Source of the DNA: Escherichia phage ESSI2_ev129
Direction: 5' to 3' (one strand)
Length of the DNA: 30,927 nucleotides
Sequence record: NC_049394.1
Of the stretch, positions 20,758 through 25,913 are shown piece after piece. Under the pieces are notes generated by a model. That model was not told the DNA's origin and did no database searches. It worked only from the letters and a program-made list of their open reading frames with translations. Every line of letters begins with the position of its first letter. The first letter of the stretch is position 1. The position numbers and the translations under genes were made by a program.

Positions 20758-22797
20758 CTACAACCACCCCGGCCACAGTTCCTGTAATGGCTCGTTTTGA
20801 GTCTCTTTAAGCCGCCCGTTGCGGTAAATCAGTGCGCCCTGACCAAATTTCAAACCACTCCCCCGCAGGAGAATGGCTATTTCTTCATCAGAACCATCAA
20901 AACCCCGACTGCGTAATTCCAGTTTTAACCGTCTGCGGGTTCCCCCCTCCGTACAGTTATTGACAGAACTCCAAGGGGCGGCGTTGCCGCCAGAAAAACC
21001 CGCCTCCGCTGGCGCTTCGGCCAGTTTCGCTACCTTCTGCCACTTCACCAAGCGCGTACATACCTCGGAATCTGGAACCAATGGAGAATAGACGCCCTGA
21101 ACACGCTGCACGTCCTCTGCGTATTCGTTTCCCTGTTCCGTAATTTCATAGGCCAGGCGAACAACCAGATCACGGCGGGGAACCAGTGCACCGCCCTGCG
21201 CCTGGGTATATGCAGCCCAGTCCCCGACATCAGCAGCGGCCAGAACCGCATCCATTCTGCGATCTGCCAGTACCTGATCCCGCAAACGACGCAGCTCACG
21301 CCAGACAGTTACCGGCGCACCACCAATCTGTTGAAACTGGCGAATACGCCAGCGTGAAGCCCACGCGGAAACGGACTTAGCCATATCACGCAGATTTTCG
21401 CCGGTTTCTTCGTCCTGCTCACCATCCAGCGCAAAACCATCAATATTTTTTGAAATGTATTTCGCGATGTAGCCCGTGGCCGAACCTTTGGCGGGATCGA
21501 TAGCTTCAACATGAAAACGCGCCTTCAGCGCCTTTTCAGATTGAAGTTCTTCAGAATCGGTAATTCTGGCGTGATAACAAAGAATATCGCGTACCGTGTC
21601 CACGTCCTGCGGACGCATAAAAAGCAACATATGCCAGTGCGGTGTCCCGTCATGGTGAGGCTCAACAACCCGAAACCCAAATACATGGATACCAGCACGC
21701 GAGATCGCTGCACGCGCTTTTGCCCATACGCCGCATAAATAGCGCTGGGTATCCTGCGGCGTACTTCCATCCCATTGCGATACAAAGCCACCTTTGCTGT
21801 GTACCGCATGGAAACGTGATGGTGCGGTGATGGTGTAAAACTCACCGGCCAGCCCTTCTTCATTTGCCATATCTTCAAACCCTCGCATTCTTACCATTAG
21901 CTCACAGCGACGGATCGCCGGATTTGCAACGCTGCGGTGTACCATGCTGTCCAGTGCAATGCGCAGCCCTTCATCATTCAGCAGATCAAACTTTTTAAAG
22001 AACTCCAGATTCCGCTTTTTCTGGTCTATCCATTCACCCAGTGTTTTGCGGGATACATAAGCGCTGGCCGCTTTTTGCACCTGCCCCACCGCGATGGCCA
22101 TGTGTTCGCGCTGCGTATCACGCGCACGTTTAAGACGCAGGTACCACCATTCCGGCGCCATCATGCGCAGTATCCCGGATTCCGCCTTACGCATTTCCAG
22201 TTGGCCTTCATTGGCCTCATGTTCAGCCCAGTACGGCGGCTGGTTATTCAGCATCAGGCAACATGCACAAAGATGTCGGTATGATTCCAGGGTGCGGCGA
22301 TACAGCTCTCTGGCGTCGTCAGTGCCGGAATCAAACTGTTCGGTGAAGTCATAAAGTGACTGGGAAATCCAGCCAGATACCTGGCCAGCCAGTTTTTTAA
22401 GATCAGGACGGTCTAGTGACGGCAAGCGCTCCAGCGACTTACCAAAAGGAAGATCAGCAGCATCAGCGGCCAGCGAGTAACGCGCAGCCACTTTTCGCAG
22501 ACGTGGCAATACACTCCCGCCGATGGTCTGGCGCAGGAATGTATTGGCACGGCGACGCCCGTCACGACCAGCAAAAAGCTTTTCATAGCGACGGCCAAAA
22601 TACCCGGCTAACCAGTCGGGTATCTCATGCAGGTACCGGGATCGCCATTCATAATCCTGCGGGTTTACAGCCCACAGGCGGCGTTCTGTGATTGTCGCGT
22701 CTGCCGGTGTACCAGGCGCAAAGGTTTCACGCCGCCAGGCATCGACGGCGTGATGTTGCCCCAGCTCTTGATGAAGGAAATCAGTATGCTCAGGCAT
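20758..22797 (-). CDS. A: Replication initiation protein (P2 gpA-like rolling-circle initiator/nickase)
   Basis: 679 aa; contains the tyrosine active-site-like segment SATGYIAKYISKNIDG characteristic of the gpA family; ATG 22795-22797 overlaps the upstream methyltransferase stop by 8 nt. Confidence 0.85.
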   Translation of the reverse strand: MPEHTDFLHQELGQHHAVDAWRRETFAPGTPADATITERRLWAVNPQDYEWRSRYLHEIPDWLAGYFGRRYEKLFAGRDGRRRANTFLRQTIGGSVLPRLRKVAARYSLAADAADLPFGKSLERLPSLDRPDLKKLAGQVSGWISQSLYDFTEQFDSGTDDARELYRRTLESYRHLCACCLMLNNQPPYWAEHEANEGQLEMRKAESGILRMMAPEWWYLRLKRARDTQREHMAIAVGQVQKAASAYVSRKTLGEWIDQKKRNLEFFKKFDLLNDEGLRIALDSMVHRSVANPAIRRCELMVRMRGFEDMANEEGLAGEFYTITAPSRFHAVHSKGGFVSQWDGSTPQDTQRYLCGVWAKARAAISRAGIHVFGFRVVEPHHDGTPHWHMLLFMRPQDVDTVRDILCYHARITDSEELQSEKALKARFHVEAIDPAKGSATGYIAKYISKNIDGFALDGEQDEETGENLRDMAKSVSAWASRWRIRQFQQIGGAPVTVWRELRRLRDQVLADRRMDAVLAAADVGDWAAYTQAQGGALVPRRDLVVRLAYEITEQGNEYAEDVQRVQGVYSPLVPDSEVCTRLVKWQKVAKLAEAPAEAGFSGGNAAPWSSVNNCTEGGTRRRLKLELRSRGFDGSDEEIAILLRGSGLKFGQGALIYRNGRLKETQNEPLQELWPGWL

Positions 22798-23800
22798 ACT
22801 GTCCCCCCATCAAGTAGGCTTTTATAAAAGCTGTCGCAGCTTCTGCATTCAGGGCGTTGCCATAGGTTCTAATTCGTCCCACTCTGGAGGAAGCCCCATT
22901 AACCAGAGGCTTAAGGCCGGATTTAATTGGCCTCCACTTTCCATCTCTGCACAGAAGCCAGTCAGCATCTTTCCAGAAGCCGTTAACCGCACCGGCCCCG
23001 CTATCTGAGCAACCACATCCAGCCTGTCTATCGACAGCTTGCCATTGCGAATCCTCCCCCCAGAATATCCGCCCTTGTGATCGCTCGCTGTTGGAGTCGG
23101 CCAGCCCGCTAACCTCGCCGCGCCGCCAAGCGTTGTACCTCGCTTCGGATGGTTTGCTGCCGCCCCCTCTCCTGAAATTTGATTGTTGTCCTGTGTAGTT
23201 GGAGTTGGCCACCCTGCAAGTTGAACCGCTGTTTGCAAGTTCAATCCCCCTTGACGGCCTGCATTGCTGGGATGTTTCCATGCATTCGCTGTCGGTGTTG
23301 GCCACCCAGTAAGTTCTGTCTCTGATATTCGGCGCACCGACGCTCGCAGCCGGAAACGCACACGCCCCGAAGGCATAGCCCATTGCTTCCATGTCAGCTT
23401 GTACAAGGTCGATCCAGTCGTTTGCGTGAGCACTCGCAGATTGCTCGCCAAAGATAACGAGAGGGCGGCGCTGCCCGACCAGCCAATGCATGGCGGGCCA
23501 TAAGTGCCGCTCATCAGCAAACCCTTTTCCTTTGCCTGCCGCGCTGAAAGGTTGGCATGGACATGATCCCGACCAGACTGGTTTATCTTCTGGCCATCCA
23601 GCACGGCGCAGGGCATATGACCAAACTCCAATCCCTGCAAAGAAATGGACTTGAGTGAATCCTCGCAAGTCGTCTGGATGGACATCTTCAATACTCCTTT
23701 CATCAACTTCACCGGCCATAATGCGACCGGCAGAAATATGCGTACGCAGTCGCTCTGCCGCAAACGGATCAATTTCGTTGTAATATGCGGAAGGTTTCAT
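22790..23800 (-). CDS. DNA (cytosine-5) methyltransferase, with a two-frame anomaly in its central region
   Basis: This frame carries motif I (FFAGIGVW), motif IV (GSCPCQPFSAAGKG), motifs VII-VIII (EAMGYAFG..GAPNIRDRTYWVA) and a motif-X-like C-terminus (YGNALNAEAATAFIKAYL). ATGA overlap with the Dam stop. A second same-strand frame (22849..23772) holds a triplicated LAGWPTPT module; see findings. Confidence 0.7.
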   Translation of the reverse strand: MKPSAYYNEIDPFAAERLRTHISAGRIMAGEVDERSIEDVHPDDLRGFTQVHFFAGIGVWSYALRRAGWPEDKPVWSGSCPCQPFSAAGKGKGFADERHLWPAMHWLVGQRRPLVIFGEQSASAHANDWIDLVQADMEAMGYAFGACAFPAASVGAPNIRDRTYWVANTDSECMETSQQCRPSRGIELANSGSTCRVANSNYTGQQSNFRRGGGSKPSEARYNAWRRGEVSGLADSNSERSQGRIFWGEDSQWQAVDRQAGCGCSDSGAGAVNGFWKDADWLLCRDGKWRPIKSGLKPLVNGASSRVGRIRTYGNALNAEAATAFIKAYLMGGQYA

Positions 23801-24648
23801 GCGCTGACCTCAACCGGAACAGGCCATTTAAGAATCAACTCTGCCGCCATTTTCGGGCTTGCAGCTGCCGCACCAACGCTACGCGGTGCATTCACCTGAA
23901 CAGCGTCAAACCCTGCATACAGGTAATGCACCATTTCCAAATCGCTGTTTGACGCGACCACCTTAATCCCACGTTCTGCCAGGCGTCGTAGCTTACGCGC
24001 CAACCGACCCTGATCCAGGTGCGAAAAACCGCGCTCATGGTAAGCGGTGAAATTGTCGGTATCAGTCAGATAAGGCGGATCACAGTAAACAACGTCACTC
24101 CCGCCCCGAACCAAATCGAGCGTTTCTGAATAGTGGGCAGTAATGAACGTTGCACGCTTCGCTTTTTCGGCAAAGGCGCGTATTTCATTGGCAGGGAAAT
24201 AAGGCTTCTTGTACTTACCGAACGGGACATTGAACTGACCACGGCGATTATACCGGCACAGGCCATTGAAGCAGTGCCGGTTCAGATACAGGAAACGCGC
24301 AGCATTTTCAATGGATTCAGAACCGGATTTACCGGACAGGTTGAAGGCATCCCGCACTGCGTAATAGAAAACTGCACGGTTTTCTTCATCGCCTAACGAA
24401 CCGGCAGTAAACAGGATCTCCAGCTCATTCAGCAGCGCATCAGTGTGATACGCCATCGCCTTATAAAGATTAACCAGATCAGGATTCACATCTGCGATCA
24501 GATACTCGTCATAATCCGTATTCATCATGACGGCGCAGGAACCTGCGAACGGTTCAACCAGGCGTTTACCTTCTGGAAGGTGCGGACGCAGCTTAGGCAT
24601 AAGGCGGGCTTTGCTGCCCACCCATTTAAGCGGAGTTTTAACGGCCAT
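23797..24648 (-). CDS. dam: DNA adenine (N6) methyltransferase, Dam family
   Basis: 283 aa. N-terminal [19 protein letters not shown] (AdoMet motif) and catalytic VYCDPPYL (DPPY). GGAGG Shine-Dalgarno 6 nt before ATG 24646-24648. Confidence 0.85.
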
Positions 24649-24967
24649 ATTGACCTCCGCCAGCTAACACCTCAGTGACACCGTTTGAAATGATGTATTC
24701 CAGCACTTCAAGCGGCGACAGTGAACAGATGGACAAAACCGCCCAGTTTTCAGTATCAGCGATAATTTCATTTACAGGCAAAACATGGGTGATAACCGCC
24801 GCCCACTCACGCCCGGTGTATTTCCCGTGCTTCCACTCACACAGTGAAAGAACATCACCGGTTTTGTACCCGCGATCGTTTTTTCGCAGTTCGGCCTTTT
24901 TCTGGCCAGCCACTACTGCATCAAGGTATTTCGGCGCAATCTTTATCGTGTGGATTTTGATTGTCAT
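24638..24967 (-). CDS. Small PUA/ASCH-like domain protein (DUF3850-type, tentative)
   Basis: 109 aa, ATGA overlap with the exonuclease stop, 11-nt overlap with the Dam start. Family recalled from N-terminal [40 protein letters not shown]; not verified. Confidence 0.4.
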
Positions 24968-25668
24968 TTTGCACCGCCTTCTGCAATAGCAAGGATCACA
25001 CCAAGCGTCAGATTGCAGTCATACAACGCTCTATGTGGTGCACCTTCTCCGGCATCAACCTTAAGCGCCGCCGCTGCATCCACAAGTCGTTTCCAGCGGG
25101 TTTTACGGCGTACAACATCCCATTCACCGTTATAATCTGCGTACAGCTGCATTACGCACTCAGGGGTGCGTATATCCTCATGCTGTTCATAATCCCCACC
25201 AGACTGGCGCAACATACGCGCATCAAATTTTGCGTTATATGCGACCCAGCCCTTACTTGTTAACTCCAATACTTTCGGCAGAATTTCCAACCATGATGGT
25301 GCATTAGCAACCATTTCATCCGTAATACCGTGAATTGCAGTTGCCGCTTCTGGAATAGGTTTCGATGGCTTGACCAGCGTATTAAGCAAAACGTAACCAG
25401 CACAGTCGATGATCGAAATTTCTACAATTTCATCATCAAATCCTAGTCCTGTGGTTTCTGTATCAAGAATGACAAAGCCCTTATCAATCCAGCGCTTTGC
25501 TATCTGCTGTTCAGTTTCCAGACGGTCGGAAAAATACAGAGACTGATCGGTGATCCTCCAACACTGGCGAATCACATCGCGCAACGAAGCCCCTTCTTTA
25601 GCTCTGGCACCAGAAACCACCCCACCCAAAATGGCCGAAAAAAGTTGATTGCGAGCGCTCAATTCCAT
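24964..25668 (-). CDS. 3'-5' exonuclease, DnaQ-like (DEDDh)
   Basis: Track start is a TTG; refined to ATG 25666-25668 (MELSARN...). Exo I motif ILDTETTGL, Exo II-like VAYNAKFD, Exo III HRALYDC. Confidence 0.8.
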
Positions 25669-25913
25669 GCCGCACCGCCTTTGCTGCAAATCACTGCGGC
25701 TTCTTCGCGGATTAACTCAACGATTTCCGCTGCGCTTAAACCTTCACTGGCTGCATGGGTGGCCAGCTTATCCAGACGGGTGGAACACAGATCAGCAGCT
25801 GCGGCTTTACCTTCCTGCGTGGCTTTGGTGAGCATGTCCTGCCACACGGAAAAGGCATACTCAATCCGATATTCGAATTGTTTTCTGGCAAAAATTTCTC
25901 TTTCTTTATTCAT
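25659..25913 (-). CDS. Hypothetical early protein
   Basis: 84 aa, ATG 25911-25913 with AAGGAA Shine-Dalgarno; overlaps the exonuclease start by 10 nt. No motif recognised. Confidence 0.5.
   Translation of the reverse strand: MNKEREIFARKQFEYRIEYAFSVWQDMLTKATQEGKAAAADLCSTRLDKLATHAASEGLSAAEIVELIREEAAVICSKGGAAWN

Follow-up and report, generated by a model that had tools for sequence, protein, structure and literature searches.

This work concerns a locus on the minus strand of Escherichia phage ESSI2_ev129 (record NC_049394.1), whose 30,927 nucleotides (nt) were analysed as one stretch, hereafter the window. In this P2-like phage the gene order is dam, then the open reading frame (ORF) under study, then replication gene A. 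Here, I propose that the locus very probably contains a nested pair of overlapping genes, read from the same strand and encoding both subunits of one C5-cytosine methyltransferase. The larger gene, alpha, occupies frame A (22790..23800, minus strand; 336 amino acids (aa)), matches PF00145, and its product is identical to the protein annotated as 'dcm' of Escherichia phage ESSI2_ev129 (P0127). The smaller gene, beta, is contained within frame B, which is displaced by +1 nt relative to alpha and whose maximal open extent is 22849..23772 (minus strand, 307 codons). Both ORFs had been reported, with these same limits, in an initial annotation of the window. The proposal builds on four things that are observed directly: how the frames are laid out, how far this layout is conserved, where selection acts and which sequence signals are present.

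The motifs that characterise C5-cytosine methyltransferases are divided between the two frames, all on the minus strand. Frame A carries motif I (FFAGIG, 23627..23644), found by sequence, PDB profile search and hhalign; motif IV with the catalytic Cys (PCQPFS, 23543..23560), found by Pfam and PDB profile search; motif VI (FGEQS, the counterpart of ENV, 23438..23452), found by sequence, PDB profile search and hhalign; motif VIII (PNIRDRTYWVA, 23300..23332); and a motif X-like helix (YGNALNAEAATAFIKAYL, 22811..22864), recognised by the frame-A wobble pattern and by a helix predicted with AlphaFold2 (AF2). Frame B carries a series of WxTP repeats followed by a motif IX-like box (LWLMGLPPEW, 22879..22908) that shows the frame-B wobble pattern. 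The initial annotation had called motifs I, IV and VIII, the IX-like box and the X-like C-terminus in the same frames, and these calls hold; those of motif IX in beta and motif X in alpha are pattern-level assignments, given by conservation, position, predicted structure and literature precedent.

The A/B/A layout recurs in other elements. Three homologs retrieved by DNA similarity share it, namely the Salmonella phages SI7 and 65FD and a Klebsiella element: their annotated frame has the N-terminal motifs, a low-complexity middle and the ending '...VNGFWxDADWLxCRDGxWRP...YGNAxN..AA.FI.AY', and their open +1 frame encodes WxTP repeats and 'GPARLTASGEMLTG...GGQLNPxxSRWLMGLPPEW'. A query with the frame-B peptide returned 80 viral-contig loci, 76 of which could be analysed for motif layout. 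Of the 76, 65 have motifs I, IV and VIII together with the YGNA box in frame A, and have the WxTP repeats and IX-like box in frame B; in these same loci the YGNA (motif X-like) box begins exactly 44 nt after the start of 'RWLMGLP' (motif IX). Indel variants are seen in L019, L022, L049 and L068. Beta is confined to the inside of alpha-type genes in all 69 analysable loci, and none of 332 family proteins classified for motif content is a single-frame enzyme combining IV, VIII, WxTP, IX and X. Homologs that align collinearly in one frame and lack the GWPTPT peptide, which according to the initial annotation would speak against the second frame, were not found among those compared. The exact gene of the window is rare in complete E. 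coli genomes, as a megablast search against them gave only two partial matches.

The order of the motifs along the DNA suggests one ancestral frame, as would be expected from a pseudogene with two compensating frameshifts, or from an assembly artefact. Either origin is hardly credible, for dozens of diverged loci share the layout independently of one another, and in both frames stops are avoided and selection is purifying. The initial annotation had offered three explanations, of which the nested overlapping gene is borne out; the pseudogene founders on the 65/76 layout and on purifying selection, and the recoded enzyme on the lack of a conserved shift site, on the double constraint in two places and on the gene-wide openness of frame A (see below).

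The selection pattern was derived from column entropies at the codon positions of frame A (a1-a3) and frame B (b1-b3), in bits, computed on 63-65 unique sequences in gap-free alignments anchored on motif VIII or motif IX. Over the first part of the gene, up to roughly -150 nt relative to motif VIII, only frame A is constrained, with 1.32 bits at position 3 and 0.5-0.6 at positions 1-2. Between -141 and -9 this periodicity is lost (a3 0.89, a1 0.74) and both frames are constrained. Motif VIII (GAPHIRQR) again follows frame A (a3 1.32). From the first GWPTP onward, including a near-universal cassette, only frame B is constrained (b1 0.60, b2 0.38, b3 1.32), until, in the 87 nt ahead of motif IX, entropy is 0.55-0.74 at all three positions and both frames are constrained once more. 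Motif IX (QLNPxxSxWLMGLPPEW) has the frame-B pattern; from +36 after its start (YGNAI...AA.FI.AY) only frame A is under constraint (a3 1.31), and in the motif X region all variation of the frame-B tail (TATP, TAMP, MATR...) comes from substitutions that are silent in frame A.

Two segments are truly dual-coding; outside them the information is carried by a single frame, A or B. The first (23341..23473, minus strand) holds alpha motifs VI-VII (NDWIDLVQADMEAMGYAFG...) and, in the beta reading, a helix and beta-hairpin (SAALSLSLASNL...GSTLYKLTWK..MPSGR....LRAS). Here the wobble entropy of alpha drops from 1.32 to 0.89 bits, and the alpha codons CCT, TTT and GTT have an unchanging wobble T at precisely those sites where a frame-B Leu depends on it; the 'TW' of frame B is encoded by ACN-TGG, with N at 1.75 bits. 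The second (22909..22995, minus strand) reads VRLTASGKMLTGFCAEMESGGQLNPALS in beta and VNGFWKDADWLLCRDGKWRPIKSGLKPL in alpha, and the frame-B wobble is invariant exactly at the first bases of the conserved alpha residues W, D, W, D and P.

Between these segments the two frames fare very differently. Amino-acid identity in the cassette region is 0.76 for frame B, 0.38 for frame A and 0.40 for the non-coding third frame, so that frame A is conserved there no better than non-coding sequence. It is nevertheless kept open: in all 69 unique loci of the frame-opening analysis it runs without a stop from before motif I to beyond motif X, at motif VIII-IX distances of 223-697 nt. Stops in the cassette region were counted in 68 loci, with the expectation taken from synonymous-codon shuffling of the frame-B-coded sequence. 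No frame-A stop occurs in any of the 68, against 2.25 expected per locus (mean probability of no stop, 0.18); stops in the third frame number 4.5 per locus. For the window, 5.0 frame-A stops are expected and none is observed, a stop-free case never arising in 1000 shuffles (P 0.000). In the universal cassette (56 segments of 39 codons) frame A has no stops and the third frame 82. The shortage of stops, together with the lack of sequence constraint, indicates that frame A is selected for openness and that alpha is made in one piece.

Upstream of motif VIII, the opening of frame B reaches back to between -347 and -404 nt in most loci and at least to -269 in 67 of 69, crossing a part of alpha without sequence constraint in frame B. 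In flanking genes the +1 frame has 0.034 stops per codon (0.043 in ESSI2_ev129); by the flanking stop density the 66-codon open run from -345 to -150 has P = 0.11, and it is present in 66 of 68 loci.

Alpha is recognisably the catalytic chain. Its residues 77-174 match PF00145 (E = 1.5e-11; 44.8 bits, cut-off 22), and alpha aligns with M.HhaI, over M.HhaI residues 72-174 in a PDB profile search (E = 5e-15) and over M.HhaI residues 5-174 in hhalign (E = 3e-13, probability 97.9%). The catalytic motifs comprise FxGxG (I), PCQ (IV), an ENV-like VI and a QxRxR-like VIII. In the AF2 model, a single chain like all those used here and based on 116 homologs, the predicted local distance difference test score (pLDDT) is about 90 at residues 1-80 and 100-170, and the best PDB matches are M.HhaI, M.HaeIII and DNMT2. 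Thereafter comes a linker (residues 172-275) that is predicted to be disordered, with pLDDT 22-27, and that is without consensus among the 116 homologs; residues 172-271 (22988..23287, minus strand) are the frame-A shadow of the beta cassettes. The C-terminal helix (304-334) reaches pLDDT 69-88 over most of its length, and motif X in alpha is supported by this predicted helix, by the conserved YGNA[ILV]..A..FI box and by the frame-A wobble pattern.

The N-terminal order of alpha is unusual. A motif II/III-like sequence, YYNEIDPFAA...GEVDERSIEDVHPDDL, precedes motif I (FFAGIG); in the window the motif II-like stretch YYNEIDPFAAERLRTHI (23735..23785, minus strand) is recognised by sequence and has pLDDT ~90. 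The hhalign alignment to M.HhaI jumps from motif I directly to motif IV, omitting M.HhaI 34-70. This order may represent a permutation of the half that binds S-adenosylmethionine (AdoMet). An alternative identification of the N-terminal YYNEID...LRNLI as a permuted motif X was dropped, for by the hhalign result this stretch has more resemblance to motifs II-III, here situated ahead of motif I.

The variable region of beta is a string of cassettes of about 30-40 residues, each starting with WxTP and ending with L[AST]G. Cassette 'A' is present in 52 of 63 unique loci and reads WPTPxxxDxKGGYQGGRIRNGKLSTDxLDVxAQ. The order of cassettes differs among loci, the arrangements including B-A-C (8), A-F (7), D-A (5) and B-E-A (5), and that of the window is B-I-A. 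An 18-bp element coding for GWPTPT had been noted three times in the window, with five variable sites, each of them a frame-B third codon position at which the change is synonymous, and this description holds: copy 1 (GGGTGGCCAACACCGACA, 23290..23307) starts cassette 'B' and overlaps motif VIII (23332-23300), as also noted at the outset; copy 2 (GGGTGGCCAACTCCAACT, 23197..23214) starts cassette 'I'; copy 3 (GGCTGGCCGACTCCAACA, 23089..23106) starts the near-universal cassette 'A' (...DHKGGYSGGRIRNGKLSIDRLDVVAQ), all on the minus strand. The idea of a triplicated module, on the other hand, stands only as regards the number of copies: as they open three different cassettes, they do not represent a recent triplication. 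Other peptides specific to beta are LAGWPTPTASDHK and LSIDRLDVVAQIAGPVR.

Such an architecture is already known from M.EcoHK31I of E. coli (target YGGCCR), a natural alpha/beta heterodimeric C5-methyltransferase (Lee, Kam & Shaw 1995, via PMC2836561 and PMC3404938). Its beta chain is encoded within the alpha gene in another frame, and both chains are required; motifs I-VIII and X are on the large ORF and motif IX on the small subunit (PMC2836561; PMC3404938). When the start codons of beta (Met1, Met17 and Met26) were removed by silent changes, activity was lost, and beta supplied in trans brought it back; loss of about 42 N-terminal residues of beta weakened its association with alpha (PMC2836561). 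By this description, the ESSI2_ev129 locus is alike in that a small ORF lies wholly inside a large one, in another frame, and in that the large ORF bears motifs I, IV, VI and VIII and an X-like box. Along the same line, the conserved helix-hairpin suggests itself as a candidate for the element by which beta associates with alpha. Unlike M.EcoHK31I, the ESSI2_ev129 gene is an orphan between dam and A, without a partner endonuclease, and its relatives are flanked alike; moreover, the M.EcoHK31I literature places the target-recognition domain in alpha, whereas here the conserved, cassette-like variable region is solely in beta. No match carrying the name M.EcoHK31I appeared among the database hits of the frame-B or chimeric queries. 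What appears to be little recognised is the size of the family, the missing annotation of beta, the location of the cassettes in beta, the stop-free but unconstrained linker and the dual-coded segments.

For the translation of beta, separate initiation at the Shine-Dalgarno sequence and ATG of 23699-23683 is the most likely route, and further internal starts are possible. In the window AAGGAG (23699-23694, minus strand; the alpha codons GAA-AGG-AGT, Glu-Arg-Ser) is followed after 8 nt by an ATG at 23685-23683, which would give a coding sequence at 22849..23685 (minus strand, stop at 22849-22851) and a 278-aa product (MSIQTT...MATP), its start being assigned from these signals and from the depletion of stops in frame B downstream of it. 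Nearly all loci have a frame-B ATG at -353 or -341 from motif VIII with a Shine-Dalgarno-like sequence ahead of it. In 24 loci the Arg-Ser codons AGG/CGG-AGT/AGC form a GGAG 8 nt before a usable ATG; in 36 the codons are CGC-TCA, no usable ATG is found at that site, and an ATG lies 12 nt downstream after GAGGA. The signal and the start thus covary across clades, with 8 discordant loci. A further cluster of starts at -188/-185/-182 is preceded by AAGGA(G) in many loci. A stop at -269 interrupts frame B in L032 and L038, where this cluster at -188/-185, with GGAGG or AAGGAG, is the sole combination of Shine-Dalgarno sequence and start. Two alternative ATGs exist in the window, at 23512..23514 (of this cluster; 221-aa product; preceded by AAGGAAAAGGG) and at 23374..23376 (MPSGR; 175-aa product), both on the minus strand. 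For comparison, M.EcoHK31I has an alpha chain of 309 aa, as has Escherichia phage K1ind3, and a beta chain of 176 aa, close to the 175-aa product of the ATG at 23376. The candidate ATGs at 23685, 23514 and 23376 are also reminiscent of the multiple starts of M.EcoHK31I beta (PMC2836561).

Programmed frameshifting would be another way of reading both frames, either by a +1 shift after motif VIII and a -1 shift after motif IX, yielding one A-B-A chain, or by a single +1 shift yielding a fusion of the N-terminal part of alpha with beta. It would agree with the canonical motif order of the conserved pieces along the DNA and with the natural in-frame A-to-B fusion proteins in databases. I consider it quite unlikely. 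In the column entropies of the aligned loci no conserved slippery or shift site is present at either junction, and the junction columns (-165 to -145 from motif VIII, +33 to +44 from motif IX) vary at all three codon positions. The frame-B constraint begins some 140 nt before motif VIII and the frame-A constraint 87 nt before motif IX; because the constraints start ahead of the junctions, both frames must be read through the same DNA. Indeed, PPEW in frame B and SRVGR in frame A share the same bases. Frame A is, in addition, stop-free gene-wide, over about 170 further codons, which a shifted product would not need, and the beta chain of M.EcoHK31I is independently initiated (PMC2836561). The literature search on frameshifting in DNA methyltransferases returned nothing relevant: a paper on a P2-like Burkholderia phage treats only the tail genes E/E', and among methyltransferases the Atkins review of frameshifting mentions only the yeast tRNA methyltransferase ABP140.

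A case in point is the viral locus L034, in which frame B contains an inserted HNH-like domain (...SLDRIDPQSGYVYSNVRVVCHGVNSAMGDW...) at a site between motifs VI and VII of alpha; alpha (851-2458, 535 aa) passes through the insert as stop-free low-complexity sequence, and beta spans 936-2429 (497 aa). Since the insert lies upstream of motif VIII, frame B must be read from before VIII, for which a shift after VIII cannot account. Another HNH-like segment, rich in Cys and His (...HVHHKNRN...VLCVECHRAEH...), follows motif IX in the family protein P0447 (525 aa).

Several results weigh against a beta subunit that completes the enzyme. Frame B has no match in Pfam and nothing in NCBIfam, and the beta alignment used as a PDB profile query gave no match even at E = 10. 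The alignment of its 'QLNPAHSRWLMGLPPEWD' with M.HhaI 273-291 (motif IX) by hhalign is weak (E = 0.28). When modelled alone with AF2, beta has a mean pLDDT of 54.6 and a predicted template-modelling score of 0.24, that is, low confidence; its best-predicted part is the helix and beta-hairpin at residues 70-117 (pLDDT 72-85), which coincides with dual-coding segment 1, and the first ~70 residues counted from 23685 are predicted to be disordered and lie where frame B is unconstrained. No start codon is kept at one position family-wide, and the beta start is assigned from sequence signals. On the alpha side, motif X has no significant profile match and was not aligned by hhalign. Finally, among the best 120 hits to a chimeric A+B+A query (P0121-P0240), 78 are single-ORF in-frame fusions from A to B, which could hint at another mode of expression; against Pfam, these natural fusions match in motifs IV-VIII only.

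One might therefore regard frame B as a genuine overprinted gene whose product is unrelated to the methyltransferase, with alpha alone acting as the enzyme: all catalytic motifs are on alpha, beta matches no Pfam or PDB profile, and some records call the ORF only 'Mte8-like' or 'hypothetical'. I give little credence to such a separation. From motif VIII to the C-terminal region, no segment of alpha is conserved or ordered, and alpha hence lacks a candidate for a target-recognition domain. The terminal box of beta aligns positionally with motif IX of M.HhaI, if only at the E value given above; beta occurs exclusively inside alpha-type genes, in 69/69 loci; and the M.EcoHK31I precedent needs both chains (PMC2836561).

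As to the fusions, their junctions are scattered, many of them at G-runs: they fall in poly-G runs, in the G-runs of 'KGGYQGG', before motif VIII (P0217) or after motif VI (P0144), and P0166 runs A-B-A. This scatter is not what a programmed shift would leave. The pattern of junctions argues that the public protein sets of this family are contaminated with indel chimeras, many annotated as 'DNA cytosine methyltransferase'.

Klebsiella-type relatives have a G8 tract (CAACCGACA-G8-TAAACCT) within a beta cassette (L003:2902-2925). The same tract site is found in L022, L028, L036, L037, L047, L052, L053, L057, L058 and L068, as G7 in L022 and as G9 in L068, and P0129-P0145 are G7-, G10- or G13-type fusion proteins of alpha (N-terminal) and beta (C-terminal). 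By its sequence, the tract may be a hot spot either of phase variation or of homopolymer sequencing errors. These length variants and fusions, along with the G5-G6 runs of the window, could speak for indels in G-runs that toggle the gene between the overlapped state and an active alpha(N)-beta(C) fusion. Such switching seems very improbable as the explanation of the layout: the overlapped state is the usual one, both in the loci with the tract (9/11) and overall (65/76); the fusion would lose motif X and the N-terminal module of beta; part of the variation is accounted for by homopolymer sequencing error; and the G-runs of the window, only G5-G6 (23250-23246, 23167-23163 and 23061-23056), are rather short for efficient slippage.

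The nested alpha/beta gene pair can also be set beside other known systems. M.AquI is a two-polypeptide C5-methyltransferase split in the variable region and encoded by consecutive genes, the large subunit with motifs I-VIII and the small one with IX and X (PMC3404938). In ESSI2_ev129, unlike M.AquI, the large subunit keeps motif X and the small gene is nested at +1; an assignment to the M.AquI type fails because motif X is in frame A, the frame-B tail being merely its shadow. The phage C5-methyltransferases of the SPR/phi3T type are single chains in a single frame, with tandem target-recognition modules between motifs VIII and IX. The present family resembles them in its exchangeable modules, the cassettes being shuffled between loci, and here the modules are in a separate, nested frame. 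Overprinted genes of small viruses yield two proteins from the same DNA and show fewer synonymous changes where both are constrained (PMC8227390). Unlike these, both products of the present locus would be parts of one enzyme, the overlap is mostly 'asymmetric' (one frame is sequence-constrained, the other is kept open), and the host genome is that of a double-stranded DNA tailed phage, in which the pressure on genome size is not extreme.

From the above I infer that beta is translated and forms a heterodimer with alpha, and the roles of the parts and their biological purpose may be pictured as follows. Alpha would supply the large catalytic domain that binds AdoMet and the C-terminal motif X-like helix; the disordered linker between these two halves, about 100 residues long, would only have to be free of stop codons. 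The N-terminal helix and hairpin of beta would dock onto alpha; the three WxTP-initiated cassettes would act as the DNA-recognition part, and the motif IX-like box would complete beta. Together the two chains would form an active orphan methyltransferase. It would be expressed as part of the early dam-dcm-A operon, presumably to shield phage DNA from restriction. More tentatively, and as an idea that falls somewhat short of being probable, the same may apply to the whole family and, by extension, to M.EcoHK31I: DNA recognition would reside in the nested beta, with its exchangeable WxTP cassettes, and the alpha reading of that region would be a stop-free, sequence-free spacer. If so, specificity could evolve by swapping cassettes in one frame while the other merely stays open, and predictions of specificity from alpha alone would be systematically blind to beta.

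The family is large. Homologous frame-B ORFs gave 1201 hits, and a beta profile found 21,777 cluster representatives at 50% identity, 6,090 of them at E <= 1e-30. Beta is encoded in 215 phage records, among them those of N15 (gene 58), the K1-specific Kagunaviruses and phages of Klebsiella, Burkholderia and Rhodobacter; in PHROGs, alpha corresponds to phrog_363 and beta to phrog_31772 and phrog_1008. The annotated records that were inspected, including one RefSeq E. coli chromosome processed by the Prokaryotic Genome Annotation Pipeline (PGAP), list alpha alone, and some records label the nested ORF just 'Mte8-like' or 'hypothetical'. Escherichia phage K1ind3 (GU196281.1, L085) has a 'putative C-specific methylase' of 309 aa at 906-1835 and also a nested +1 'putative Mte8-like protein' of 265 aa at 994-1791. 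Gene 58 of N15 (NC_001901.1), a well-studied prophage that exists as a linear plasmid, was matched at 45144-45461, and L038, taken as N15, shows the A/B/A overlap. The 'C-specific methylase' and 'Mte8-like protein' of K1ind1/K1ind3 and gene 58 of N15 are thus of the same gene type and layout as the locus of ESSI2_ev129; those phage annotations state no function or subunit relationship for the nested ORF. 'Mte8' is a propagated label, for which no functional information was found in the literature searched.

It follows that thousands of phage and prophage entries named 'DNA cytosine methyltransferase' are listed without the subunit that probably sets the target sequence. Both frames are needed for predicting phage methylation targets, for matching methylome motifs to genes and for cloning the enzymes. 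M.EcoHK31I has been used for targeted methylation, and natural alpha/beta pairs with shuffled cassettes could be a useful library. The locus is also a clean natural example of segments under dual constraint combined with a long stretch in which one frame is selected just against stops.

The neighbourhood of the gene in the window is that of an early operon on the minus strand. The gene dam (23797-24648, PF02086) overlaps alpha by 4 nt (23797-23800), and alpha overlaps replication gene A (20758-22797, PF05840) by 8 nt (22790-22797), as given by the ORF coordinates and in keeping with the initial annotation, which had described alpha as coupled to both. Two further minus-strand ORFs of the operon, of 109 aa (24638-24967) and 241 aa (24964-25689), lie upstream of dam. 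The overlaps of a few bases between successive genes suggest translational coupling along the whole early operon. In a Klebsiella relative, a 3'-5' exoribonuclease is annotated at the head of the corresponding operon.

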